DNA of 64,000 bases from an uncultured bacterium (lineage in GTDB: Bacteria; Cyanobacteriota; Vampirovibrionia; Gastranaerophilales; Gastranaerophilaceae). Positions 2,199 through 64,000 of this stretch are shown in pieces. Under the pieces are notes generated by a model, which saw only the letters and a list, made by a program, of their open reading frames with translations, did no database searches and was not told the DNA's origin. Where the stretch lies: assembly GCA_949284415.1 (NCBI GenBank), contig CASDVM010000027.1, positions 28,016 to 92,015 of the forward strand, given 5' to 3'. Numbering within the stretch: the first letter of the stretch is position 1; each line of letters begins with the position of its first letter. A program made the translations under genes and the position numbers.

Positions 2199-3719
2199 AT
2201 GGACTTTTTATTGATTATTGCGGTTATTGCGGTAATAGCATTAATCGCCGTGCTGTTTGTCCAGCAGAGCAAAACCAAATCCGTGCTTCAATCCGTTGAA
2301 AAAGACAGGAAGGCATTGGAAGAAAAAGAAAAACTGCTTCTTAAAGAGGCAAAAATCAAAGCAATCGAAGAATTGCAGGATGACAGAGAAAAACTTAACG
2401 AAGAAGAAAGAGAAAGACGTCAGGAGCTTGCAAGACAGGAACAAAAATTAGCAAAACGTGAAGATATGCTGGAAGATAAAATTCAGGAATATACTGAAAA
2501 AGATCTGCAGGCTCAAAGAAAGTTGGATGAACTTCTGGAAAAAGAAGATTATCTTGCTGAAATTGTTCAAAAACAGACAACCGAGCTTGAGAGAATTTCG
2601 GGAATGTCTGCAGAAGATGCTAAAAATATGCTTCTTGACCAGCTTAAACATGATCTGGCACAGGAGCAGATGCAGCTTATCAGAGAAAATGAAGCCAAGA
2701 TAAAAGAAACATCATTAGAAAAGGCAAAAGAAATTTTATCAACAACAATGCAGAGATGTATGATTGAGCAGGTGGTCGAAACAACTGTTTCTGTTGTTGC
2801 CTTGCCCAATGATGAAATGAAAGGCCGTATAATAGGACGTGAAGGACGTAATATCAGAGCGTTAGAAACTTTGACAGGCGTTGATTTGATTATTGATGAT
2901 ACACCTGAAGCCGTTGTATTATCAAGTTTTGATCCCGTAAGACGCGAGATTGCTAAACTGGCTCTTGAAAAACTTATTGTAGACGGTCGTATTCACCCTG
3001 TCCGTATTGAGGAAATGGTTGAAAAAGCTCAGGATGAAATTGATAAAAAAATCTGGGAAGAAGGCGAAAATGCTGCTCTTGAAATGGGTGTTATGGGCTT
3101 GAATAAAGAGCTTATCAAGACTCTAGGTCGACTTTATTACAGAACAAGCTACGGGCAGAATGTATTGAAGCATTCTCTTGAAGTCGGGCACATAGCAGGC
3201 ATGCTGGCCGCAGAAATCGGCGCGAATGAAAAAATTGCAAAACGTGCAGGTCTTTTGCATGATATTGGTAAGGCTGTTGATCAAACTCAGGAAGGCACCC
3301 ATATTCAGCTCGGGGTTGAACTTGCATCAAGATACGGTGAACGTCCTGAAGTAATTCATGCAATAGAAGCCCACCACGATGATGTTGTCGCCAATACAAT
3401 TGAAGCAGTTCTGGTAAAAGTTGCCGACGCAATTTCCGCAGGCAGACCGGGTGCGAGACGCGACACGCTTGAAATTTATATTAAACGTCTTCAAAAGATC
3501 GAAGAAATAGTTAACAGTTATGAAGGTATTAAGCAATCATTTGCGGTTCAAGCGGGACGCGAGGTCAGAATTATTGTTGAATCTGAAAGATTTGATGATC
3601 TTGCATCACAGAAACTGGCAAGAGATATTGCAAAACGTATAGAAGACGAACTTGATTACCCGGGACAAATCAGAGTTACGGTAGTAAGAGAGTTCAGAAC
3701 AACTGAAATAGCAAAATAG
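2199..3719 (+). CDS. rny: Ribonuclease Y
   Basis: N-terminal TM helix, Lys/Glu-rich coiled coil, KH motif [15 protein letters not shown] and HD domain LLHDIGK...HH. Confidence 0.95.
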
Positions 3720-3721
3720 AA

Positions 3722-3793
3722 GGCAAGAAGTTCAGAAGACAGGAAGGCAAGCTGATACAGATAACGCCTGACTTCCTGCCCTCCTGATCTTCG
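3722..3793 (+). terminator. Long imperfect palindrome after rny, built from the GGCAAGAAGTCAGG-type repeat unit
   Basis: GGCAAGAAGTTCAGAAGACAGGAAGGCA pairs imperfectly with GCCTGACTTCCTGCCCTCCTGATCTTC. The same unit recurs inside the pilin leaders at 9436-9463, 22636-22663 and 63976-64000. Confidence 0.5.
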
Positions 3794-8996: not shown

Positions 8997-9275
8997 ATGA
9001 ACAAAGAAGAATTAGTACAAGAAATTGCAAAAAAATCTAACGTAACTCAAAAAGAAGCATCAGAAGTTTTGGGTGCTTTAATTGAAACTATTCAGAAAAC
9101 GGTTTCAAAAGGCAAAAAAGTTACATTAGTAGGCTTCGGTACTTTTGAATCAAGAAAAAGAGCAGCAAGAGTCGGCCGTAACCCTCAAACCGGCAAGGAA
9201 CTTAAAATCCCTGCAAGAACAGTTCCGGCATTTTCAGCTGGTAAAAAATTCAAAGAAGCTGTTAACAAAAAATAA
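8997..9275 (+). CDS. hup: HU family DNA-binding protein
   Basis: MNKEELV...GFGTFE...RNPQTG..I motifs. AGAAGGAG SD before the ATG at 8997. Confidence 0.93.
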   Translation: MNKEELVQEIAKKSNVTQKEASEVLGALIETIQKTVSKGKKVTLVGFGTFESRKRAARVGRNPQTGKELKIPARTVPAFSAGKKFKEAVNKK

Positions 9276-9297
9276 GCAGTTTTTTGAAAGCTTTGTA

Positions 9298-9333
9298 AAC
9301 AACGGACTTAACAATATTGTTAAGTCCGTTGTT
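9298..9333 (+). terminator. Hairpin after hup
   Basis: AACAACGGACTTAACA-ATAT-TGTTAAGTCCGTTGTT, a perfect 16-bp stem. It overlaps the -35 of the next promoter. Confidence 0.6.
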
Positions 9334-9345
9334 GTATGATATAAT
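9317..9345 (+). promoter_or_regulatory. Sigma70-like promoter of pilin locus A
   Basis: TTGTTA, 17-nt spacer, then TGATATAAT (extended -10), about 35 nt upstream of the leader ATG. Confidence 0.55.
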
Positions 9346-9379
9346 AATATTAAAATTGAATTTAAGAAAGGAGCAAAGT

Positions 9380-9472
9380 ATGGGAAGTTTATTAAGAAAT
9401 GTAAATCGGGGGGGGGGGGCATTCTCGGCTGACAGGTGGCAAGAAGTCAGGAAGTCAGGTTGTTTACATTAA
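9380..9472 (+). other. Leader ORF of pilin locus A, containing a G12 tract at 9408-9419
   Basis: AGGAG at 9369-9373, ATG at 9380, sequence MGSLLRNVNRGGG, then the tract. As assembled it stops at 9470-9472. With 11 G it reads into the stop-free frame that continues as ORF 9489..10481. Confidence 0.7.
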
Positions 9473-9488
9473 TGTCATTGCGTATTTA

Positions 9489-10481
9489 TTGCGCAATCCG
9501 GAATTTTTCATAAAAAGGTCGCATACCATATGCGCGATGCCGGGTCTTAATATTAAATTCCTCGCCCTTTGGAAGAGAGTGTCCGAAGGACAGGGGATGG
9601 GCTTGTTACAAAGAAGGATGTCCTTGTTTAATGACTCAAAAGAGTCTCGTTATTACACAGAAAGTTCATGCAAAACTGATGTTGCGGGTGCAGCGGCTAC
9701 GATTCCGAAACGAACTTATTCACTTATTAACCTATTCTCTTATTCTCTTCATAAAAAAGCAGCGTTTACGCTTGCAGAGGTCTTGATAACATTAGGAATT
9801 ATCGGAATCGTAGCCGCTATGACTATGCCGTCTCTTATTTCGAATTACAGACATAAAGTTTTAGAAACCCAATTTAAAAAGGCATATTCTGTTATCAGCC
9901 GGCTTGGTTCAATGATTATTTCAGAGTATGGTGATTGTTCGTATAGTCAAACTGAAGATATAAAGGAGTTTATTTTATCTAATCTTATTAAGGCGGATCA
10001 GACGAGTTCTTCGGATAAATATACTAACTTTTTTACGTATACCAAAAACAAGGCATCTGTCGGAATTCATTTTAACTGTTTGGATAATGTTTCTTGGACA
10101 AACAGCAAAAGCGGTTCAACACCGGATGGAATGCAATTCGCTCTCTGTTCTCATAACAGCGGTATTGGAACAATAGTTGCAGTTGATACTAACGGAGCGG
10201 GAAAAAGACCTAATGCATTCGGTCATGATATATTTTTCTTTCATTTTAATACGGGAAATTGCAGGCTTGAACCTATAACATATACTATCCGCAATTGTAC
10301 TGATGAAGAAAAAGACAGTTGCACACAATCTTCAGATACATATAACGGATGGAAGAGTGTTAATGGAGAATGTTCTCATACAAGTACATCTTCTACAAAC
10401 GGATTTGCCTGTGCACGGTATGCTATTGCAAATGTATGTCCTGACAGTTCGGGCAAAGGATATTTTGATTGTCTGCCTTAG
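9489..10481 (+). CDS. Type IV pilin-like / pseudopilin-like protein A. The true start is probably the leader ATG at 9380, in frame only when the tract is in phase
   Basis: KKAAFTLAEVLITLGIIGIVAAMTMPSLISNYR prepilin-type motif at residue 91 of the tracked ORF; VDTNGAGKRPNAFGHDIFFFHF family motif. The frame is open back to 9405. Confidence 0.8.
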   Translation: MRNPEFFIKRSHTICAMPGLNIKFLALWKRVSEGQGMGLLQRRMSLFNDSKESRYYTESSCKTDVAGAAATIPKRTYSLINLFSYSLHKKAAFTLAEVLITLGIIGIVAAMTMPSLISNYRHKVLETQFKKAYSVISRLGSMIISEYGDCSYSQTEDIKEFILSNLIKADQTSSSDKYTNFFTYTKNKASVGIHFNCLDNVSWTNSKSGSTPDGMQFALCSHNSGIGTIVAVDTNGAGKRPNAFGHDIFFFHFNTGNCRLEPITYTIRNCTDEEKDSCTQSSDTYNGWKSVNGECSHTSTSSTNGFACARYAIANVCPDSSGKGYFDCLP

Positions 10482-11237: not shown

Positions 11238-11285
11238 ATGAAAGATTTATTAAGAATTGTGAACGCGGGGGGGGGCGCTTCTTAG
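11238..11285 (+). other. Leader ORF of pilin locus B, containing a G9 tract at 11267-11275
   Basis: AGGAG at 11227-11231, ATG at 11238, sequence MKDLLRIVNAGGG. It stops at 11283-11285 as assembled. With 8 or 11 G it is in frame with ORF 11371..12219, and there is no stop between them. Confidence 0.7.
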
Positions 11286-11370
11286 CTCCTTATCAATAAT
11301 TTTAACTTGTCAAAATAAAAAAAACTGTTATAATAGTGATAAAATACATCACAATTATAAGGGATTTAAC

Positions 11371-12219
11371 TTGGAAAAATTAAAAGGTTTTACCCGTGCG
11401 GAAGGTGCGCATGTAAGCGACTTTGACAAGATACGCAGAGCAGCATTTACTTTGGCAGAAGTTTTGATAACATTAGGAATTGTAGGAGTTGTAGCAGCCA
11501 TGACAATGCCCGCGCTGATAAATAATTACAGGGCAAAAGTCTTAGAAATAAGTTTTAAAAAAGCTGATTCCATTATTACCCAAGCAATGCAAACAACAAT
11601 GTATGAATACGGGTTTACAAGGTATTATGATTTCGGGATATTTTGTAGCGGTGAGTATTGTAAAGATACAAAACCTGAAGTTTACTTACCTCTGAACAAT
11701 TTATGGAAAAAGCAATTCAGCGGTTTAGAAGAGACAGGTTGGCAGCAAATAAAATCTAAAAATTATCCGTTTGCTAAATTTTGGGGAGAAAAAGCTAATT
11801 TTAATTACGTATTTATGGTTGCCGGTGCCAAGAATAATACTTCTCTAAAGGCATATTTTATGAAAGATGGAATGTTAATCAGTGAAATTATTTTTGAGGC
11901 AAATAATGCTTCGGAATTGGGTGATAAAAGTCATAGGTATACAATATTTCCATTTATATTTGTAGATACAAACGGACCGGCAAAAGGTCCGAATCGTTTA
12001 GGTTATGATATGTTCTATTGGGTTAAAATGACATGTTATTTTACATACTGCGATCCTTTATCTGATAATGTAAGAGGTTGTTATTTATGGGCAAGAAAAG
12101 ATCAAAATCCTTATGATAATTCGGTCAGTTATTGGAAATCATTGTATAAATCAAAGAGTTACTGGGAAAAATTAAAATCTATAGGCGGTGGTAATGGAGA
12201 ACCCAAAGAATTATATTAA
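11371..12219 (+). CDS. Type IV pilin-like / pseudopilin-like protein B
   Basis: RRAAFTLAEVLITLGIVGVVAAMTMPALINNYR and VDTNGPAKGPNRLGYDMFYW. A degenerate first motif MEKLKGFTRAE lies at the tracked TTG start. Confidence 0.8.
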   Translation: MEKLKGFTRAEGAHVSDFDKIRRAAFTLAEVLITLGIVGVVAAMTMPALINNYRAKVLEISFKKADSIITQAMQTTMYEYGFTRYYDFGIFCSGEYCKDTKPEVYLPLNNLWKKQFSGLEETGWQQIKSKNYPFAKFWGEKANFNYVFMVAGAKNNTSLKAYFMKDGMLISEIIFEANNASELGDKSHRYTIFPFIFVDTNGPAKGPNRLGYDMFYWVKMTCYFTYCDPLSDNVRGCYLWARKDQNPYDNSVSYWKSLYKSKSYWEKLKSIGGGNGEPKELY

Positions 12220-17993: not shown

Positions 17994-18081
17994 TACAGAA
18001 TTATTTTACCATGAAATTTTTTCTTAGTAAAAGATTCTAAGTTTACCAGGTAAATAAAAGAACAGGTTAATAAGAGAATAA

Positions 18082-18187
18082 GTCGTTCGCACTCTCTCCT
18101 ATGAAAGAGGGTTGAGGGCAGAGTTGATTTTTACCCACTCCCTTTACTTCCTCTGTTTTGCTCACCCGTGAATAACGGGAGTGCGAC
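18082..18187. repeat. Palindromic intergenic repeat element
   Basis: TCGCACTC at 18087-18094 pairs with GAGTGCGA at 18179-18186. The GAATAAGTC flank motif is shared with 36575-36589 and, in reverse complement, 47510-47518. Confidence 0.4.
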
Positions 18188-18310
18188 TTTATGTTATCTG
18201 TCTTTTGTTACTAATTTTGCTTTATTTTGTAACAATTATTTGAAGTTTTGAATGTTTATGATATTATCAGTTTAACAGATGATTATAATATTTATGAAAA
18301 GGGGAAAAAT

Positions 18311-18868
18311 ATGATTTCAGTAAACGATTTAAAAACAGGCTTAACGCTTCAATTGGACAACGGTTTATGGTCTGTTGTTGAATTTTTACACGTAAAACCC
18401 GGCAAAGGTGCTGCGTTTGTCAGATCAAAACTTAAAAACGTTGAAACAGGTCAGGTTGTTGAAAAAACTTTCCGTGCAGGCGAAAAAGTTGCAAAAGCTA
18501 TGCTTGACAGACGCGAAATGCAATACCTGTATAAAGAAGGCAAAGAGTACGTTATGATGGATAACGAAACTTATGAGCAGCTCCAGTTAACCGAAGAACA
18601 AATCGGAGACGGTATCAAATATTTGAAAGAAAACATGATTGTTCAGGTGTTGATGCACGATTCAAGAATTATAGGCGTTGACCTTCCTGCTCATGTAATT
18701 CTTGAAGTTACTGATACTCCTCCGTCAGAAAAGGGCAATACTGCTCAGGGCGGTACAAAACCTGCTACTCTTGAAACAGGTGCTGTTGTTAATGTTCCGT
18801 TCTTCATTTCAAACGGTGATAAAATCAGAGTAGATACAAGAACTAACGAGTATCTTGACAGAGCGTAA
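18311..18868 (+). CDS. efp: Elongation factor P
   Basis: [13 protein letters not shown]...[23 protein letters not shown] purines precede the ATG at 18311. Confidence 0.93.
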
Positions 18869-18989
18869 TTTAAGTAAACGGGTGAATAAATTAGAAATAA
18901 GGCTATTTTTTGTACTTTAAATTTGATAAGAACTTATTAGCTTATTAGCGTATTTACCTATTCACTTAATAGTTACAGAAAGGCAAAAT

Positions 18990-19439
18990 ATGAAATTTGA
19001 TATAGATTATGTTGAAAAATTGGCAAAGGTTTTAGCTGACAATTCGTTAACTGAAATTTCATTAGAAGACGGAGAACAAGCTATTACATTGAGAAAAGAA
19101 GTTATGGGCGTTGCTGCAGCTCCCGTTGCAGTCCCTGCAACTCAACCGGCACCGGCTGCTCCGTCAAATCCTGCAGCTCCTGCTGAACAAAAAGAAGTTA
19201 AAAAAGGAAAACCTCTAACTTCTCCTATGGTAGGAACTTTTTATTCAGCACCTTCTCCTGATGCGGAACCTTTTGTTAAGGTCGGTCAGACTGTTAAAGA
19301 AGGCGATGTGGTTTGTATTGTTGAAGCTATGAAGCTTATGAATGAAATTGAAGCAGAATTTTCAGGTAAAGTAGTTGAAATTTGTGTAGAAGACGGCCAG
19401 CCTGTAGAATTCGGACAAGTTTTAATGTATATAGAATGA
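18990..19439 (+). CDS. accB: Biotin carboxyl carrier protein of acetyl-CoA carboxylase
   Basis: Ala/Pro-rich linker and the biotinylation motif [13 protein letters not shown]. Confidence 0.93.
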
Positions 19440-19505
19440 AGTGAGACGTGAAGAGTGAAGTGTGAAACGAATTTCACTTTTCACTTTTCACCCTTCACCT
19501 TTTCT
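19438..19505. repeat. Hairpin built from tandem heptamers (GTGAAGN x4 and its complement x4)
   Basis: GTGAGAC GTGAAGA GTGAAGT GTGAAAC gaa TTTCACT TTTCACT TTTCACC CTTCACC. Likely an accB-accC attenuator or terminator. Confidence 0.6.
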
Positions 19506-21202: not shown

Positions 21203-22027
21203 TTGAAGAGTTATATGAAAAACGCTTTTACGTTAACCGGAGGTGCTACACACGTAGTTATGCCGAGCAATTCTTGTCAATTCTTAACAGGGCTTTGTAC
21301 CGGTGGTACCACGCACATAACCTGCTTTGATAATATTAGTAAAGCCGCCTTCACTCTGGCAGAGGTTTTGATAACTTTAGGGATTATCGGTATTGTTGCA
21401 GCATTGACAATGCCTGCTTTAATCGGTAATTATCGCAAAAAACAGACAGTTGTGCAGTTGAAGAAGATATATTCTGCAATGTCGCAGTCTGTGCAAATGT
21501 CTCAGAGTAATTATGGAGATATTGCTGACTGGGATTGGACACTTAGTACGGAAGATTTTTTTTAAAGATATTTGAGTTATAATTTTTCTGTTCTTAAGTA
21601 TTGCGGAAAAAAAGAAGGCTGTTGGAACAAAGATGGCGGGCTAATGCCTAATGGAAATAAATACAGTGATCCTCCGACATTTGCATCTGGCAGTGATAGA
21701 GCCAAAATCAGCTTATCTGATGGTGCGTTTATTGCTATGCGTAAACAGGACAATAACCATGTGCATATCAATGTGGATATTAACGGTTTTAAACGTCCTA
21801 ATACTTATGGAGTGGATATTTTTGTATTTACATTAACGGCTGTCCCTTTTTCAGACAGTTCTCATAAGATTGCTTCACCGGGGCTGTTTATGTTTGGACA
21901 TGGATTGAATGAAAATGAAATAAAATCAAATTATAATGGCTGTTCCAAAAATTCGAACGGTCTTATGTGCGGTGAAAAAATATTAATGGACGGCTGGGAT
22001 ATTAAAGACGATTATCCGTGGAAATAA
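21203..22027 (+). pseudogene. Type IV pilin-like protein D, interrupted by one in-frame TAA at 21566-21568
   Basis: Tracked ORFs 21203..21565 and 21572..22027 are in the same frame. The N-part has KAAFTLAEVLITLGIIGIVAALTMPALIGNYR; the C-part has DINGFKRPNTYGVDIFVFTL and DGWDIKDDYPW. The stop aligns inside a conserved block of the paralogs. Confidence 0.7.
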
Positions 22028-22546: not shown

Positions 22547-22581
22547 AATAGTAGTAACAGTAAAAACAGAGGAGATTAATT

Positions 22582-22632
22582 ATGAAAGATTTATTAAGAT
22601 TTGTAAATCGGGGGGGGGGCATTCTCGGCTGA
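22582..22632 (+). other. Leader ORF of pilin locus C, containing a G10 tract at 22610-22619
   Basis: AGGAG at 22570-22574, ATG at 22582, sequence MKDLLRFVNRGGG. It stops at 22630-22632 as assembled. With 11 G it is in frame with ORF 22689..23615. Confidence 0.7.
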
Positions 22633-22688
22633 CAGGTGGCAAGAAGTCAGGAAGTCAGGTTGTTTACATTAATGTCATTGCGTATTTA

Positions 22689-23615
22689 TTGCGCAATCCG
22701 GAATTTTTCATAAAAAGGTCGCACACCATATGCGCGATGCCGGGTCTTAATATTAAATTCCTCGCTCATTGGAAGAGGGGGGCCGAAGGACATGAGAGGG
22801 GCTTTTTACAAAGAAGGATGTCCTTGTTTAACGACTCAAAAGAGTCTCGTTATTACACAGAAAGTTCATGCAAAACTCATATTGCGGGTGCCGCGGCTAC
22901 ACTGCCGAAACGAACTTATTCACCTGTTCACTTATTTTCTTATTCACTTCACAAAAAAGCAGCGTTTACGCTTGCAGAGGTCTTGATAACATTAGGAATT
23001 ATCGGAATCGTAGCCGCTATGACTATGCCGTCATTGATAACTAATTACCGAAAAAAACAAACTGCTGTCAGACTTGAAAGGTTTTATTCTATAATGAGTC
23101 AGGCTGTTCTCAGATGGCAGCAGGACGAAGGAATTGTGCCTGAGGATATCAGGTTTCCTGCGGAGACCGTAAAAAATGGTGTAAAAACGCAGGAGTGGTT
23201 TTCTTCTACAATCGGTAAATATATAACAACTACATATCAAACAACTAACGGGCAAAATTTTTCTGCTGCATTTAATGACGGTTCCGGATTTGATTCTTAT
23301 ATAGGCAATGAAAACCAGTTTTTTATATTTTACTGCGTAGATTATAAGTATTGTATAAATGCTAACGGAGACGGAAATTATAACGGTAAAACAGGGTTCC
23401 TGTTTGAGATAAACCGAGGCAAATTTCTAACATCTTCTCCATATTTTGATAACAAGACAAGAGAAGAAATCTTAGAATCGTGCAAATACGGAAACAGAGA
23501 TGACCCGTCTGTGAGTTCAAAAGGACGCCGTCATGCCTGTGCAAGACTTATTCAGATGGACGGCTGGGAAATAAGAAAAGACTACCCATGGGAACAAACA
23601 ATGTTAGAAAATTAA
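22689..23615 (+). CDS. Type IV pilin-like / pseudopilin-like protein C
   Basis: KKAAFTLAEVLITLGIIGIVAAMTMPSLITNYRKKQ and a C-terminal DGWEIRKDYPW. The leader is near-identical to locus A. Confidence 0.8.
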   Translation: MRNPEFFIKRSHTICAMPGLNIKFLAHWKRGAEGHERGFLQRRMSLFNDSKESRYYTESSCKTHIAGAAATLPKRTYSPVHLFSYSLHKKAAFTLAEVLITLGIIGIVAAMTMPSLITNYRKKQTAVRLERFYSIMSQAVLRWQQDEGIVPEDIRFPAETVKNGVKTQEWFSSTIGKYITTTYQTTNGQNFSAAFNDGSGFDSYIGNENQFFIFYCVDYKYCINANGDGNYNGKTGFLFEINRGKFLTSSPYFDNKTREEILESCKYGNRDDPSVSSKGRRHACARLIQMDGWEIRKDYPWEQTMLEN

Positions 23616-26926: not shown

Positions 26927-27535
26927 TTATAACCTGTGCGGATAATCTTTTCTGAATTCCCAATTGTCTATTTCCAGCAATGCAGAGCAATAAGCCCCAT
27001 TATTTTTGCATGCTTCAAGTATTTTATCTCTTGAATGCGGCTGATTTCCATAATAGTATGTGCACCATCCTTTATTTGGACACCATTCTGTTATTGATTT
27101 GTCGCAGGCTAAAAATCTGAATCTGTCCCTGCCCTCGACATTAGGTTTTTTATCTCCGTTAACATCAAAGATACAGTCCATACATCTTCCTCTGTATATA
27201 GTTAATTTTGTTCCATCAGGAAAATACATTATAGCCTGACTATTATTTTCATCAATAGACAAAGCCTTAAGATATGGAGCCCAGTATTTCGTGGCAAATT
27301 CTTTCGGAGGCAGTGATAAATCCCATTCATTAACATCACCGTTTTCTTCAACAGAAAGAATCAGTGCCTGCCCCATCATAGAATTGAATTTTTTCAACCT
27401 TGCACTTGTTTCTTGTCTTTTATAGCTAGTGATAAGACTAGGGAGTGTCAATGCTGCAACTATACCTATAATTCCGAGTGTAATCAAAACTTCAGCCAAA
27501 GTAAACCCGATTTTAGTCTCATTATTCTGTTTCAT
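26927..27535 (-). CDS. Type IV pilin-like protein G with a canonical short leader
   Basis: MKQNNETKIG-FTLAEVLITLGIIGIVAALTLPSLITSYKRQ, FDVNGDKKPNVEGRDRFRFL and C-terminal IDNWEFRKDYP. The ATG at 27535 is preferred over the tracked start at 27628. Confidence 0.85.
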   Translation of the reverse strand: MKQNNETKIGFTLAEVLITLGIIGIVAALTLPSLITSYKRQETSARLKKFNSMMGQALILSVEENGDVNEWDLSLPPKEFATKYWAPYLKALSIDENNSQAIMYFPDGTKLTIYRGRCMDCIFDVNGDKKPNVEGRDRFRFLACDKSITEWCPNKGWCTYYYGNQPHSRDKILEACKNNGAYCSALLEIDNWEFRKDYPHRL

Positions 27536-36522: not shown

Positions 36523-36879
36523 TACATAAGGAATGTTATTGGAAGTAAATAAGTAAATAGAAGAATAAGAGAATAAGTCTTTACGGTGCGCTGAAGCGCA
36601 CAAAAAATATAAATATCCGGCTGTTAGCGAAGTGAACAATCAATGTTTGCGAAACAATGACAAAGCCGGCTATTGTCTGAGCGTAATATTTCAAGATTCT
36701 GAAACAAGTTCAGAATGACATACGAGCGAGTTTAGCCGGCTCGAGTTGAGCAATTACAATTGATTAGTGAACTGAGTGAAAGCCGGGAGCTTCTTTGCGG
36801 TACTTTCTTGTCGGTACAAGAAAGTACCAACAAGGTATCTTTAGTAGATTGTTTTACTTCCAATAACATTCCTTATGTA
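36523..36879. mobile_element. MITE-like element, or a large structured RNA, bounded by 27-bp perfect inverted termini
   Basis: TACATAAGGAATGTTATTGGAAGTAAA at 36523-36549 is the exact reverse complement of 36853-36879. The 303-bp core has no ORF and holds three strong hairpins (36586-36601, 36696-36716, 36799-36828). Confidence 0.45.
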
Positions 36880-46367: not shown

Positions 46368-46779
46368 TAATTCACCTCGTCTATGTGTACGTACTATATA
46401 TAAAAAATTGTATTATTTTTTCATTTGTTATTCTGAATTTATTTCAGGGTCTCATGAAAATTATTTACAATAATAAAAATCTAACTTGAGGCTGTAAACC
46501 TTTCATTTTACTGAATTTCAGCTTAATGAACTTTTGTGATTAAATTTAATTCGGGCACAATACACCTAACTTAAATTTATCATGTTACTTAATCATAATA
46601 CATCAATTTTTTGCGTCAAGAAAATATCGCTTAATTTAAAAAAATATGTTAAATTTTTGTTACAAAGTGTTAATTGCTTAATTTCCGCTGGCTGAAAGCT
46701 TGATTATATAATGAATAGAGTGTCAAGACTATACTTCTGGGGTGTTCATTATATGATATTAAAATAAAAAGGAGTATAT

Positions 46780-50873: not shown

Positions 50874-51671
50874 TTAAAAACTAATTCTTCTGGGGTAGTT
50901 TTTCGGGATTTTCCATCCGTTGCGCTGGATTATTGCTGTACAATATGCTCCTCCACTTTCATTGTTTGTTCCGCTATTTGGGTTACACCCTATTTGGGTA
51001 TCATTGTATAATGTATCTTCATCCCCATCCCAATTGTATAGATATGGTTCCATTCCTTTCTTATACAAGTATTTCCAGAAAGGTGCATCACTAATGGGAT
51101 AGAATTCAAAAATAAATCTGCAAGATCCTATGGAGTTTTCTTTTTTTATACATTTTTCAGGATTTTTAGGTATAAAATATATATCACGGTTTTCATGCTG
51201 TGCAAAGTAAAAAGCGCTCCCGTCAGCTAAAAAGTAAAGAATAATTTTATTTCCGTCAGCATCTTTAGCTTCTTTTTTATGAGTAATTTTCATGTACGGC
51301 GCAAGGTATTCTTGAAAAGACTCGTCATTTTTGTCAGCCTGATTAACTTTATTCCCCTCATCATCTTCTATATCGTTGTTGAAATAGCTCCAGCTTTCAA
51401 CCTCACCGTTATCGACAATTGACTGTAAAATAGCCTGATTCATAACAGAGTAGAATTTTTTCAGTCTTGTTTCAGCCACGGAGTGTGTGTAATTTTGTAT
51501 TAAAGCCGGCATTGTCATAGCAGCGACAATCCCTATAATGCCTAAGGTTATTAAAACTTCGGCCAATGTAAACGCGACTCGTTTTTTAAGTGAAGTGTGA
51601 AAAGTAAAGTGTGAAGTACATTTCCCTCTCCCCTTGCGGGAGAGGGGGAACGTAGCCGTTCCATCCAACAC
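50874..51671 (-). CDS. Type IV pilin-like / pseudopilin-like protein F
   Basis: KKRVAFTLAEVLITLGIIGIVAAMTMPALIQNY and C-terminal NGWKIPKNYP. The frame stays open upstream to 51806, through the C tract. Confidence 0.8.
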   Translation of the reverse strand: MLDGTATFPLSRKGRGKCTSHFTFHTSLKKRVAFTLAEVLITLGIIGIVAAMTMPALIQNYTHSVAETRLKKFYSVMNQAILQSIVDNGEVESWSYFNNDIEDDEGNKVNQADKNDESFQEYLAPYMKITHKKEAKDADGNKIILYFLADGSAFYFAQHENRDIYFIPKNPEKCIKKENSIGSCRFIFEFYPISDAPFWKYLYKKGMEPYLYNWDGDEDTLYNDTQIGCNPNSGTNNESGGAYCTAIIQRNGWKIPKNYPRRISF

Positions 51672-51763
51672 CTTAGTCTTGCATAAAACTTTTACGATAC
51701 TTCCTACTGCCCTATTGCCATAGTATTTTACTATCTTCTTAAATACTAAATCACAATCCCTTG

Positions 51764-51814
51764 CTATACAATACTTCTCGGGGGGGGGGCGATTCTCAGC
51801 TCTTCTCTATTCAT
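51764..51814 (-). other. Leader ORF of pilin locus F, containing a C10 tract (coding sense) at 51780-51789
   Basis: AGGAGG at 51823-51828 (minus strand), ATG at 51814, sequence MNREELRIAPPP. It stops at 51764-51766 as assembled. ATG to the pilin GTG is 143 nt, so one extra C (11) restores the frame. Confidence 0.7.
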
Positions 51815-58590: not shown

Positions 58591-59509
58591 AATTGCTATT
58601 ACAACAGGAGATCCAAACGGTATAGGTGCAGAAATTACGATTAAAGCTCTAAAGAAGCTTGACTTACCGCCTGCAAGTATTGTTTTAATTTCTAACAAAA
58701 GGATTTTAGATTTTTACGGTAAGAGAAGTCATTCTGAACTTGTTTCAGGATCTGATACTTTAATTGCCAATAAATATCGGATTATCGAAATTCCGTATGA
58801 TGCGGATATTGAACCGGGCAAAGTTACAAAAGAAGCCGGAGAATTTTCTTTTCAATCCGTTAAAAAAGCTTGTGAAATAAATGCAAAAGCGATAGTTACT
58901 GCTCCTGTTGCCAAAAATGCTTTATATCTTGCAGGACATAATTTTAACGGTCAGACTGAAATTTTGCAAAAATATCTTGCTCATGACAATCAAATGGCAG
59001 AAATGCTTTTTGTTGCGGGAAATTTTAGAGTTCTTCTTTTGACACGCCATACCGCATTAAAAGATATTGTTCTTACAAAAGAAATGGTTGTTGAAAAAAT
59101 TCTTAATTTAAAAGAATTTTTTGTAAAACATTTAAAAATTACAGATCCGAAATTCGCACTGTGCGGCTTTAATCCTCATGCGGGCGAGGATGGAATTCTG
59201 GGACGGGAGGAAATAGATATTTTAATTCCTGCTGTTGAAGAACTGCGTTCAAGAGGTGTTAATATTACAAATCCGCTTCCTGCCGATACATTGTTTATAA
59301 AGGCTTTGGATTATGACTGTTGTATCGCAAATTATCATGATCAAGGATTAATACCTATAAAGACCATTGCAGGTGATAAGACCGTTAATATGACAATAGG
59401 ACTTGATATTATAAGAACATCGCCCGGGCATGGAACGGCTTTTGATATCGCGGGGAAAAACATTGCCGATGAAACGGGCATGATAGAGGCTATAAAAACG
59501 GTTTTGTAA
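58583..59509 (+). CDS. pdxA: PdxA-family NAD-dependent dehydrogenase (4-hydroxythreonine-4-phosphate dehydrogenase family)
   Basis: IAITTGDPNGIGAEI, NPHAGE and SPGHGTAFDIAG motifs. The ATG at 58583 overlaps the kinase stop. Confidence 0.88.
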   Translation: MNKIAITTGDPNGIGAEITIKALKKLDLPPASIVLISNKRILDFYGKRSHSELVSGSDTLIANKYRIIEIPYDADIEPGKVTKEAGEFSFQSVKKACEINAKAIVTAPVAKNALYLAGHNFNGQTEILQKYLAHDNQMAEMLFVAGNFRVLLLTRHTALKDIVLTKEMVVEKILNLKEFFVKHLKITDPKFALCGFNPHAGEDGILGREEIDILIPAVEELRSRGVNITNPLPADTLFIKALDYDCCIANYHDQGLIPIKTIAGDKTVNMTIGLDIIRTSPGHGTAFDIAGKNIADETGMIEAIKTVL

Positions 59510-60277: not shown

Positions 60278-60328
60278 GCCCCTCTCTCTAACTCTCTCCC
60301 TTTTGGGGAGAGAGTTAGAGAGAGGGGC
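60278..60328. repeat. Perfect 22-bp-stem palindrome of the CCCTCTC...GAGAGGG repeat class
   Basis: GCCCCTCTCTCTAACTCTCTCC-loop-GGAGAGAGTTAGAGAGAGGGGC, followed by a second hairpin AGACCTCT-AAAAAG-AGAGGTCT at 60336-60357. Confidence 0.7.
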
Positions 60329-63921: not shown

Positions 63922-63972
63922 ATGAAAAGATCAGATTATTCAAGAGTTCGGGGGGGGGGCACTCTCAGTTAG
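63922..63972 (+). other. Leader ORF of a fifth phase-variable locus (E), containing a G10 tract at 63950-63959. The downstream gene lies beyond the window
   Basis: AGGAG at 63908-63912, ATG at 63922, sequence MKRSDYSRVRGGG, stop at 63970-63972. The alternative frame HSQLAEGKKSGSQ matches the in-phase frame of loci A and C. Confidence 0.6.
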
Positions 63973-64000
63973 CTGAGGGCAAGAAGTCAGGAAGTCAAGT

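Follow-up and report, generated by a model that had tools for sequence, protein, structure and literature searches.

Within the window (the whole 64 kb stretch of DNA analysed here) we identified five related genes, designated copies A to E, in which a ribosome-binding site (RBS) and ATG are followed by a homopolymer tract, a leader and, wherever the gene is completely contained, a pilin-like protein. Copy A, on the plus strand, is preceded by a promoter-like site (TTGTTA, 17 nt, and TATAAT with a TG; 9317–9345), recognized by consensus match alone, and by a Shine-Dalgarno sequence (AAGGAG, 9368–9373) 6 nt 5′ of the ATG. This layout of RBS and ATG was common to every related locus. The start codon and 9 codons (MGSLLRNVN, 9380–9407) lead up to a tract of 12 G (9408–9419), and the peptide MKDLLRxVN was kept among G-type loci. 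As assembled, copy A is OFF; its pilin is in frame at 8, 11 or 14 G. Next comes a leader of 115 codons (9420–9764) that is open in the pilin frame and ends in ...HKKAA before F+1. The mature pilin-like protein (9765–10481) combines an FTLAEVLITLGIIGIVAAMTMP helix with a globular part that varies, and matches PF07963 and TIGR02532.

The leader of copy A is modular. Its core module (SQVVYINVIAYLLRNPEFFIKRSHTICAMPGLNI, 9453–9554) contains two hairpins, the second of which (9520–9534), with an A run 5′ of it, is terminator-like on the antisense strand. Downstream lies a module edge with GTGTCCGAAGGACAGG (9566–9605), described as a variable patch in the initial annotation; this sequence is read in another frame in loci L005 and L006. 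The tail module (9705–9764) comprises degenerate CTTATTCA repeats followed by AAAAAAGCAGCG and is a member of a repeat family dispersed between genes.

Copy C, also on the plus strand, has an AGGAG RBS and an ATG at 22582 (22570–22584), a tract of 10 G (22610–22619; OFF, with 11 being ON), a leader of 115 codons (22620–22964), and a mature pilin-like protein (22965–23615) that is the same as that of copy A up to 23032 and unrelated beyond. Copy B (11238–12219, plus strand) starts at an ATG at 11238 and carries a G9 tract (11267–11275; OFF, ON at 8 or 11), an AT-rich leader of 55 codons that is open in frame, and a pilin beginning with the F at 11446. Copy E (50874–51814, minus strand) is C-type: between its ATG (51814–51812) and its 68-codon leader (51779–51573) lies a sense poly-C tract, corresponding to G10 on the plus strand (51780–51789; OFF, ON at 11), and the pilin follows the leader. 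Copy D (63922–64000, plus strand) has its ATG at 63922 and a G10 tract at 63950–63959. The window end cuts off its leader after the start, and the conspecific locus L003 shows the whole gene. An intergenic copy of the hairpin and tail modules of the leader lies upstream of rsgA (18041–18164, minus strand), with stops in the homologous frame.

The pilin parts of copies A and C scored above the cut-offs of both PF07963 (N_methyl; 24.2 bits, cut-off 21.2) and TIGR02532 (19.2–19.3 bits, cut-off 16.3). Their signal site reads ...HKKAA, the predicted cleavage point, and FTLAEVLITLGIIGIVAAMTMP. As in class III signal peptides (PMC10191384), a basic, hydrophilic leader ending in Ala precedes F+1, E+5 and ~20 hydrophobic residues, and the charge follows the positive-inside rule. 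The definition of these signals permits either Ala or Gly as the leader-terminal residue (PMC10191384); the long-leader genes here have Ala at position −1, and a short-leader paralogue at 27508 has Gly. The gene pilD has been reported in a Gastranaerophilus genome (PMC5877343). The pilin helix has a hydropathy of 2.2, and the leaders are hydrophilic, with net charges of +6 to +15 and no hydrophobic segment of transmembrane grade.

Known prepilin leaders comprise some 5–30 amino acids. Counted from the sole RBS-ATG, the leaders described here are well outside this range, with 128 residues in A and C, 69 in B, 80 in E, and a maximum of ~316 in relatives. These predicted lengths bear out the precursor extension of about 70–130 amino acids proposed in the initial annotation. 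In addition to their length, these leaders differ from class III signal peptides in being made of repeat DNA. Leader length is known to be variable, and the leaders of T4b pilins and of S. sanguinis have been called "much longer" or "very long" (PMC10191384). Among relatives, the distance from the tract to the pilin motif ranged from 10 to 302 codons. In A and C, no start that would give a short leader lies nearer than an in-frame TTG (9624 and 22824), 47 codons before the pilin. Both copies have AAGGA-N5-TTG at this position, where internal initiation could occur. Within the leader of copy B lie a very good promoter-like site (matching at 11 of 12 positions), an RBS and a TTG (11371), and therefore, judging from these motifs, copy B might also be expressed without dependence on its tract. 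Leader tails were of the ...HKKA, ...IRRA or ...KKRA type, all without Met, and no start codon near AFTLAE was conserved across leader families.

Five homopolymer tracts in the window compare with 0.03 expected. Four lie 3′ of an RBS-ATG in the sense orientation, and the fifth (copy E) does likewise on the minus strand. The tracts are uninterrupted, at least 8 bases long, and located in the 5′ part of an ORF, and polymorphism in their length sets the reading frame, both of which are features of SSR contingency loci. Tract lengths of 8, 9, 10, 11 and 12 were seen, with G8 and G11 in frame and G9, G10 and G12 out of frame. In every complete locus but L001 (7, 10 or 13), the ON length was 8, 11 or 14, and this rule held despite varying ATG-to-tract distances and post-tract frames. 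In L020–L024, for example, a 7-nt deletion 3′ of the tract is balanced by one additional nucleotide 5′ of it. L001 combines G9 with an extra A, giving the same −1 relation.

Natural ON alleles were present in L031 (G11) and L032 (G8), which form unbroken ORFs of 327 and 387 amino acids from the canonical RBS-ATG; L035 (G11) is open as far as its contig end. OFF alleles accounted for 21 of the 23 complete loci, among them the four that are complete in the window, and the tract was exactly 10 bases, one below ON, in 25 of 31 distinct tracts. This uniform excess of G10 and OFF is no obvious prediction of ordinary stochastic switching. Nearly every scored G10 locus has a zero-frame stop 2–4 codons past the tract, and the tract with its 12-nt flank was found in either orientation with respect to the gene. 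GC skew was not monotonic, leaving the leading strand unreadable. An assembly artefact at the tract was set aside because the architecture repeats in independent assemblies from several studies and tract lengths differ within the window.

We compared 22 distinct leaders, taken from the window and from related Candidatus Gastranaerophilales contigs. Their 2622 codons contained no stop in the pilin frame, compared with 158 and 186 stops in the other two frames. The pilin motif lay downstream, with no stop in between, in all 24 complete RBS-ATG-tract loci. Intergenic copies of the leader modules, by comparison, are interrupted by stops in the corresponding frame. Strong support for translation of the leader in the pilin frame comes from the openness of that frame in all homologues, the compensated frameshifts, the conserved phase and the naturally occurring ON alleles. 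We infer that translation starts at the ATG ahead of the tract and that the leader is cleaved off. Several genes in the window look like pilins that can be reached only through a leader resembling non-coding repeat DNA kept free of stops.

The initial annotation had aligned the A and C leaders and read their substitution pattern as a sign of translation in the pilin frame. The alignment was borne out: the two leaders (9420–9764 and 22620–22964) align without gaps at an offset of 13200 and have 24 base differences. Fifteen of these lie outside the patch at 9566–9605 and change exactly the 14 codons previously counted, eight synonymously (9524, 9632, 9692, 9701, 9732, 9737, 9746 and 9752) and six by replacement (D-H, V-I, I-L, L-P, I-V and N-H). 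Another 9 changed codons lie in the patch, which had been left out (2 synonymous, 7 replacements). Between the tract and AFTLAE, neither copy has a stop in the pilin frame, and stops occur in the other two frames. When the same base changes were randomly re-placed, 6.4 synonymous changes were expected compared with 10 observed (P = 0.07 with all 24 differences included; P = 0.04 with the patch dropped post hoc). Differences were distributed 7/5/12 over the three codon positions (chi-square P = 0.20), and Nei-Gojobori dN/dS was 0.36 in the pilin frame versus 1.15 and 1.68 in the others.

These differences were patchy along the sequence, with 0 in 9420–9523, 9 within 40 nt, 15 within 121 nt, and 0 in 9753–9832. 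Finding no difference across the initial 104 of 413 nt has a probability of ~0.001. Because of this patchiness the A/C pair looks like a gene-conversion mosaic, and dN/dS therefore has limited meaning for it. Taken by itself, the substitution pattern is a weak sign of translation in the pilin frame; translation stands on the stronger grounds given above.

The initial annotation had further proposed that the leader is constrained at the protein level, a view that dN/dS near 1 in the pilin frame, or better conservation in another frame, would have contradicted. With more sequences, dN/dS was 0.45–0.66 in the pilin frame versus 0.9–1.5 in the other frames. In the core, pN/pS was 0.45 in the pilin frame versus 1.2–1.5 in the others, and over their whole length the leaders of A, C and L001 gave pilin-frame values of 0.36–0.66. 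Parsimony placed 26 synonymous and 41 replacement events in the core. Other measures spoke against protein-level constraint. Variable sites were spread almost evenly over the codon positions (14/11/17 in the core, 15/13/18 in the second half), and entropy per position was 0.25/0.19/0.33 in the core versus 0.29/0.06/1.30 in the pilin helix. Across 13 genes, pS was 0.21 for the leader versus 0.64 for the adjacent helix of the same genes, so silent sites were roughly threefold more conserved in the leader. Leader coding potential was ~0, compared with 0.52 ± 0.15 for housekeeping genes, and GC content was flat over codon positions (0.42/0.43/0.41). The dN/dS part of the claim stood, and protein-level constraint is weakly supported when this is set beside the flat codon positions, the conserved silent sites and the near-zero coding potential.

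Comparison with a distant genome, in which the syntenic helicase is just 41% identical, gave silent-site identities of 0.86 for the core, 0.39 for the helix and 0.50 for the helicase. In this comparison, nucleotide identity of the core (0.81) exceeded its amino-acid identity (0.65). Flanks of the cross-species loci were without DNA similarity to the window and therefore provided no orthologous calibration; the syntenic helicase of L033 was the sole usable comparison. Frame also proved labile: 58 of 280 leader-to-leader HSPs included a frame change, and homologous DNA at module edges was read in different frames in different genes. The main constraints on the leader are the exclusion of stop codons and the nucleotide sequence, not the amino-acid sequence.

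Searches for relatives of the leader as a protein returned little. Pfam and NCBIfam gave no domain over the leader, and a word-indexed protein search produced 2 matches only. An exhaustive HMMER search yielded 24 relatives among 1.84 billion representative proteins. Of these, 19 were read, and all belonged to the same family except P0010 and P0019; no contig position was found for P0007. P0010 and P0019 are repetitive proteins of ~1040 amino acids that are seemingly unrelated. AlphaFold2 returned no confident fold for the leader (pLDDT 31–44), which is weak evidence because the 16-sequence alignment was shallow.

These data bear on the protein-level reading in its fullest form, that the leader is a folded N-terminal domain under purifying selection on its amino acids, such as a cytoplasmic chaperone or regulatory pro-domain. 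We consider this unlikely. It would fit a dN/dS below 1 in the pilin frame only, the two helices predicted at residues 16–42, and a core module that is read in one constant frame and confined to pilin leaders within the window. However, since the other core frames hold stops, single-frame reading is forced by the need to stay open and not by amino acids. A folded domain also fits poorly with near-equal variability at the three codon positions, silent sites as conserved as replacement sites, the excess of nucleotide over amino-acid identity in the distant comparison, absent coding potential, and flat GC content. Nor would it be expected to vary from 10 to 302 codons through gain, loss, triplication and frame switching of modules, or to lack domain matches and give pLDDT below 45.

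Conservation of the leader at the nucleotide level requires its own explanation. Identities of 81–89% were kept between genomes that are otherwise saturated at silent sites. This is too high for a neutral spacer, and therefore a nucleotide-level function or horizontal spread must be added. Possible roles for the core are that of an RNA or DNA element acting in cis and that of a homology arm in gene conversion. Within the 64 kb window it had no copy outside pilin leaders, and the middle and tail modules occurred at 9 further sites. Across leaders, modules were gained, lost, tandemly triplicated or switched in frame. An Rfam 15 scan of 9250–9900 (E up to 10) gave chance-level matches only, the best scoring 21.9 bits versus a gathering score of 70, and the fold of the whole leader RNA was no more stable than shuffles (z = 0.18). 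RNAalifold on 17 leaders recovered two hairpins with 0 compensatory pairs, a result that therefore neither proves nor excludes RNA structure. No pair fell in alignment columns 1–53, the first ~50 nt past the tract, and nothing near the tract resembled the stimulatory structures of frameshifting or slippage.

Our preferred reading, to which we assign a probability of roughly 0.7, is that all five copies (A, C and the paralogues B, D and E) encode prepilins made phase-variable by a poly-G or poly-C tract, and that their leader is translated as a spacer that is kept free of stops, is built from repeat modules conserved in nucleotide sequence, and is presumably cut off by prepilin peptidase. Expression would begin from a canonical promoter, AGGAG RBS and ATG, with the tract ~9 codons on. 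At tract lengths of 8, 11 or 14 bases the ribosome would stay in the pilin frame through the leader (55–115 codons here, up to 302 in relatives) into the AFTLAEVLITLG... class III signal, and the leader would therefore be translated. Other lengths would lead to a stop 2–17 codons past the tract and no pilin. The leader would serve as a strongly basic cytoplasmic spacer, free of stops and of conserved protein domains, and would be pieced together from hairpin and low-complexity modules conserved in nucleotide sequence, several of which belong to repeat families with intergenic members. Cleavage by prepilin peptidase after Ala −1 would remove it.

A bolder and more tentative extension of the phase-variable prepilin model would give the leader a dual use. 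In addition to being translated, its core, with two hairpins of which one forms a canonical antisense-strand terminator, might act in cis to read the state of the tract, as a ribosome-sensed attenuator or polarity element that ends pilin transcription when translation stops past the tract; RNA slippage on G10 could perhaps add low-level programmed expression. If true, this would be a translation-coupled phase switch of an undescribed kind, in ten or more pilin genes per genome.

The prevalence of G10 invites a different account, in which G10 is the functional resting state and pilin is made by RNA polymerase slippage (+1 G) or −1 ribosomal frameshifting, aided by the conserved downstream sequence, with DNA length changes being secondary. 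Unlikely in our estimate, this account would fit the 25 of 31 tracts of exactly 10 bases, the −1 relation of the pilin to the ATG frame wherever it could be scored among them, the G9 and extra A with which L001 keeps this relation, and the zero-frame stop within 2–4 codons of the tract in nearly every scored G10 locus. Ten bases is also about the length of the RNA-DNA hybrid. Against it, lengths of 8, 9, 11 and 12 exist, and of these it is precisely G11 and G8 that are in frame; an earlier candidate, that these genes are never ON and so always recoded, lost most of its support once these alleles turned up. Columns 1–53 contain no conserved pair, the two hairpins downstream lack covariation, and assemblies report the majority allele only. 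The tract and flank also occur as sense poly-C in C-type genes, with the flank upstream, which therefore precludes a downstream-stimulator role there.

It is very improbable that the leader is an untranslated 5′ UTR of intergenic repeats, with the ATG and tract forming a separate upstream ORF and pilin made from an internal start: non-coding-like composition, embedded dispersed repeat modules and candidate internal starts in B (RBS and TTG 11371) and A/C (AAGGA-N5-TTG 9624) would suit it, but the 0 stops in 2622 codons fall in a single frame that is always that of the pilin, shifts across the tract are compensated so that ATG and pilin are in phase at G11, the leader families share no start codon near AFTLAE, ON alleles form single ORFs, and intergenic module copies carry stops.

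The phase-variable prepilins proposed here share properties with several known systems. Campylobacter has poly-G contingency genes. Neisseria pilC carries a genic G tract of 9–20 (PMC5953494, citing Jonsson 1991). As in such SSR contingency loci, the tract lies within the first 10–15 codons, its length toggles between full-length and truncated products, natural ON and OFF alleles exist, several such loci occur per genome, and the product is tied to type IV pili and probably surface-exposed. The genes described here differ in that the host is a non-photosynthetic gut relative of cyanobacteria, a translated spacer of 55–300 codons separates the tract from the functional protein, tract length is strikingly uniform (10), and the tract with its 12-nt flank occurs in both orientations. 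Our full-text literature search found nothing on Gastranaerophilales pilins or pilin leaders, or on phase variation in Melainabacteria.

Programmed transcriptional slippage and −1 ribosomal frameshifting, as in dnaX and IS1/IS911, similarly involve a homopolymer run, an early zero-frame stop and a long ORF in the −1 frame, which is the arrangement of most assembled alleles here. In contrast, the runs here consist of G or C instead of A or T and exceed a heptamer in length, the search for a conserved stimulatory structure was negative, and in-frame DNA alleles are present. Rickettsia palindromic elements and MITE-like repeats insert in frame into ORFs (reviewed in PMC10969869). Like them, the leader modules are short, palindromic and nucleotide-conserved, the middle and tail modules also have intergenic copies, and those translated within host ORFs encode peptides without known function. 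The hairpins noted in the leader modules are internal ones. Unlike them, the modules are gathered in one permissive region, the presumably discarded leader, of one gene family, and the core module is absent outside pilin leaders in the window.

If these precursors are real, they would have the longest prepilin leaders described by far, and would reveal how much cytoplasmic cargo is tolerated by SRP/Sec targeting and prepilin peptidase. Homopolymer phase variation of surface filaments, with many independently switchable pilin variants per genome, would extend to human-gut Melainabacteria, which are uncultured and whose host interactions are little understood. The leaders would also represent intergenic repeat DNA drawn into a reading frame and held open by selection, bearing on the origin of new coding sequence. 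They recommend caution in both dN/dS reasoning and annotation, as selection for openness can be strong while the amino-acid sequence scarcely matters. Gene callers truncated these pilin genes at an internal Met.

Copy A of the tract-bearing pilin-like genes carries a promoter-like site (9317-9345), a ribosome-binding site AAGGAG (9368-9373) and an ATG at 9380, followed by nine codons, a 12-G tract (9408-9419), the leader (9420-9764) and the motif AFTLAEVLITLGIIG..., with F+1 at 9765 (all on the + strand). The motif, part of a type IV pilin-like ORF, passes the curated thresholds for Pfam N_methyl and TIGR02532. Copy C, also on the + strand, has the same layout (ATG 22582, G10 tract 22610-22619, F+1 22965). 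Tracts were also found in copy B (G9, 11267-11275), copy D (G10, 63950-63959, its gene cut by the window end), and copy E, a minus-strand gene whose sense poly-C tract is the + strand G10 at 51780-51789. All five tracts place G on the + strand. Two further pilin-like genes, at 21215 and 27508, lack a tract. The former (21215-22027) has a 44-aa leader and an in-frame TAA at 21563 right after a T8 run, with an ORF continuing in the same frame from 21572; the interruption marks a pseudogene or else a further switch.

Related loci came from a one-genome-per-species scan, and more were added by scanning metagenomes, by searching exhaustively with HMMER, and by looking up contigs. In the one-genome-per-species scan, the leader was confined to Candidatus Gastranaerophilales (Melainabacteria) gut MAGs; one leader-bearing MAG carries the wrong label, Clostridium. 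Altogether, 31 distinct tract loci were identified. One locus (L003) is conspecific with the window, as the two are 97% identical across 2.5 kb.

Strong evidence at the sequence level argues that the leader is translated in the pilin frame, as the initial annotation had proposed. All 24 complete loci with a ribosome-binding site, ATG, and tract run stop-free to the pilin motif. The leaders of these loci comprise 22 distinct sequences, each 10-302 codons long and together 2622 codons, with no stop in the pilin frame but 158 and 186 in the other two. The ATG and pilin frames come into phase at 8, 11, or 14 tract bases, with one exception among complete loci, and this relation is kept although the ATG-to-tract distance and the post-tract frame vary by leader type. 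In L020-L024, a 7-nt deletion right after the tract is offset by one base added before it. Wherever homologous leader DNA had acquired frameshifting indels, the frame was restored in every case. Natural in-phase (ON) alleles were also present: in L031 (G11) and L032 (G8), one uninterrupted ORF (327 and 387 aa, respectively) runs from the canonical ATG across tract and leader into the pilin, and the L035 (G11) ORF is open up to the contig end. Intergenic copies of several leader modules in the window contain stops in the homologous frame. No conserved start codon was found near AFTLAE. The nearest in-frame start in A and C is a TTG (9624, with AAGGA 5 nt upstream), which would still leave 47 leader codons.

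The A and C leaders align without gaps at an offset of 13200, differing at 24 positions within 9420-9764, and the pilin frame is the sole open frame in both. The eight synonymous and six replacement codons previously listed outside a variable patch (9566-9605) proved exact; the patch contributes two more synonymous and seven more replacement codons. Of the 24 single changes, 10 are synonymous where 6.4 would be expected (P = 0.07; P = 0.04 with the patch removed post hoc), differences by codon position are 7/5/12 (P = 0.20), and dN/dS is lower in the pilin frame (0.36) than in the other two (1.15 and 1.68). As statistics, this substitution pattern is thin. Because the differences are very unevenly spread, with none in the first 104 nt or over 9753-9832 (the latter within the pilin helix), the pair appears to be a recent gene-conversion mosaic and not the product of clean divergence. 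Over the opening 68 nt of the mature pilin (A 9765-9832, C 22965-23032) the two copies are identical; beyond that point they are unrelated, and their upstream promoter regions differ as well. The tract-to-helix segment thus behaves like a cassette that loci exchange.

The suggestion that this segment is under protein-level constraint was only weakly supported by additional leaders. We compared 17 distinct sequences of the core, a 34-codon module (9453-9554 in A). In the pilin frame pS was 0.20 and pN 0.09, and the resulting ratio of 0.45 is below the 1.2-1.5 of the other frames, as protein-level constraint would predict. Against this, variability was nearly flat across codon positions (14/11/17 variable sites; entropy 0.25/0.19/0.33). 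Parsimony assigned 26 synonymous and 41 replacement events. A 26-codon pilin helix from the same genes served as a built-in positive control, with 45/8/195 events by codon position, entropy at 0.29/0.06/1.30, and a pN/pS ratio of 0.10. Silent sites are themselves conserved in the core, with a divergence of 0.21 versus 0.64 in the helix (13 genes having both regions). Relative to the L033 genome, whose syntenic SNF2 helicase fragment has a protein identity of only 41%, the core retains 81% DNA identity but only 65% protein identity. Where the residue is the same, the third codon position matches in 86% of core codons, compared with 50% for the helicase and 39% for the helix. The second half of A-type leaders (7 sequences) was similar, with 15/13/18 variable sites and 17 synonymous and 34 replacement changes. 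Coding potential, trained on the housekeeping genes of the window (0.52 +/- 0.15), was about 0 for leaders and 0.19-0.31 for mature pilin parts. Leader GC was flat across codon positions, Pfam and NCBIfam models had no match over the leader, AlphaFold2 pLDDT over it was 31-44, and only 24 of 1.84 billion representative proteins were similar to it. The observation behind the earlier proposal holds, and its interpretation stands in part: the leader is very likely translated, but its amino-acid sequence is only weakly constrained. As for the conserved core nucleotides, the core may act in cis as RNA or DNA, it may serve as a homology arm when paralogues undergo gene conversion, or it may have spread horizontally. 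We found no Rfam hit, covariation, or excess fold stability in support of any of these.

Leaders are mosaics of modules, many of which are hairpins. These include ATTGCGCA-TTTAT-TGCGCAAT; CCCCTCTCCC-GCAA-GGGGAGAGGG in copy E; and ATCGCGCA-N5-TGCGCGAT, the second core hairpin (9515-9540, minus strand; alignment A2 columns 93-119). This last hairpin is preceded by an invariant A5 run, and its antisense strand reads as a canonical intrinsic terminator, a stem followed by CTTTTTAT. One 189-nt (63-codon) unit occurs three times in tandem and in frame (L006:2534-3100), three different tail types lie upstream of AFTLAE, and the translation of GTGTCCGAAGGACAGG changes from VSEGQ in A to VRRTG in L005 and L006. 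The repeat families that include the middle and tail modules are also located between unrelated genes of the window (3718-3754, 18041-18164(-), 18924-18971, 19439-19498, 36542-36578(-), 36693-36721, 46426-46458, 58728-58756, and 60279-60327), unlike the core, which was not found outside pilin leaders in the window. Being modular, hairpin-rich, and shared with intergenic repeats, the leader looks like 5'-UTR or intergenic repeat DNA pulled into the ORF and kept open. The dispersed families comprise short hairpin and pyrimidine-rich repeats among housekeeping genes (e.g. ahead of rsgA, ahead of accB, and in the accB-accC gap).

Degenerate pseudo-N-termini (K-GFTRAEGAHV..., MKNAFTLTGGATHV..., and AFTLAEGATHV...DNIRR) directly precede the true AFTLAEVLITLG at 11386-11445 and 21215-21346 and in L003, L006, and L007. 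The arrangement gives the impression that recombination at the conserved sequence encoding AFTLAE has stacked pilin 5' ends.

In the proposed switch, slipped-strand changes in tract length would turn each gene on or off. With 8, 11, or 14 bases, a ribosome would proceed from the ATG through the leader to the class III signal sequence; with other lengths, it would halt within 2-17 codons. Since leaders are strongly basic (net +6 to +15) and lack a membrane-grade hydrophobic stretch, they would remain cytoplasmic, matching the positive-inside topology of prepilins. The last residue of the leader is Ala, and only one other residue is permitted at that position ahead of the class III cleavage site (PMC10191384), suggesting cleavage before F+1.

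The tract is exactly 10 bases in 25 of 31 distinct loci, always one short of an in-frame length, and OFF alleles make up 21 of the 23 complete loci. One explanation would be populations that are mostly OFF, with 10 as the mutational optimum. RNA-level slippage or -1 frameshifting may also contribute. In L001, a G9 tract with an extra A keeps the -1 relation.

The proposed switch shares with Neisseria pilC (PMC5953494) an ordinary homopolymer contingency mechanism, the product belongs to the class III signal-peptide proteins, and the in-frame repeats recall Rickettsia palindromic elements (PMC10969869). The novelty lies in how these are combined, with a translated repeat-DNA spacer of 55-300 codons between switch and pilin, in human-gut Melainabacteria and in many copies per genome. 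No description of it was found in the literature on Gastranaerophilales pilins and Melainabacteria phase variation.

Individual loci showed further features. Sense poly-G (G-type) genes and sense poly-C (C-type) genes have the tract and a 12-nt flank (tC-G10-CAyTCnnAGCT) in common. The module is read as sense (Gly) in the former and is antisense (Pro) in the latter; it therefore occurs in both gene orientations (compare 51780-51802 (+) with 9408-9432 (+), and L005, L009, and L033). L009 has three tracts, all on one strand. In L033 (1735-1790) and L034, the leader tail consists of a perfect octamer repeat, (CTTATTCA)x6, homologous to 9713-9752 and degenerate in A and C. In these two loci the C10 tract and the leader share a frame that is lost at the octamer repeat, so the repeat may act as an additional switch of its own.

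The B leader contains the best promoter-like site in this region (11307-11334; TTGTCA, 16 nt, TATAAT; 11/12 matches, with TG), with AAGGGA and a TTG start downstream (11362-11373). Expression of B might also be independent of its own tract. Even so, this AT-rich 31-codon stretch is stop-free in the pilin frame. Elongation factor P, which aids poly-proline stretches, is encoded at 18248-18868; C-type leaders encode PPP at the tract, and its presence in the window may be coincidental.
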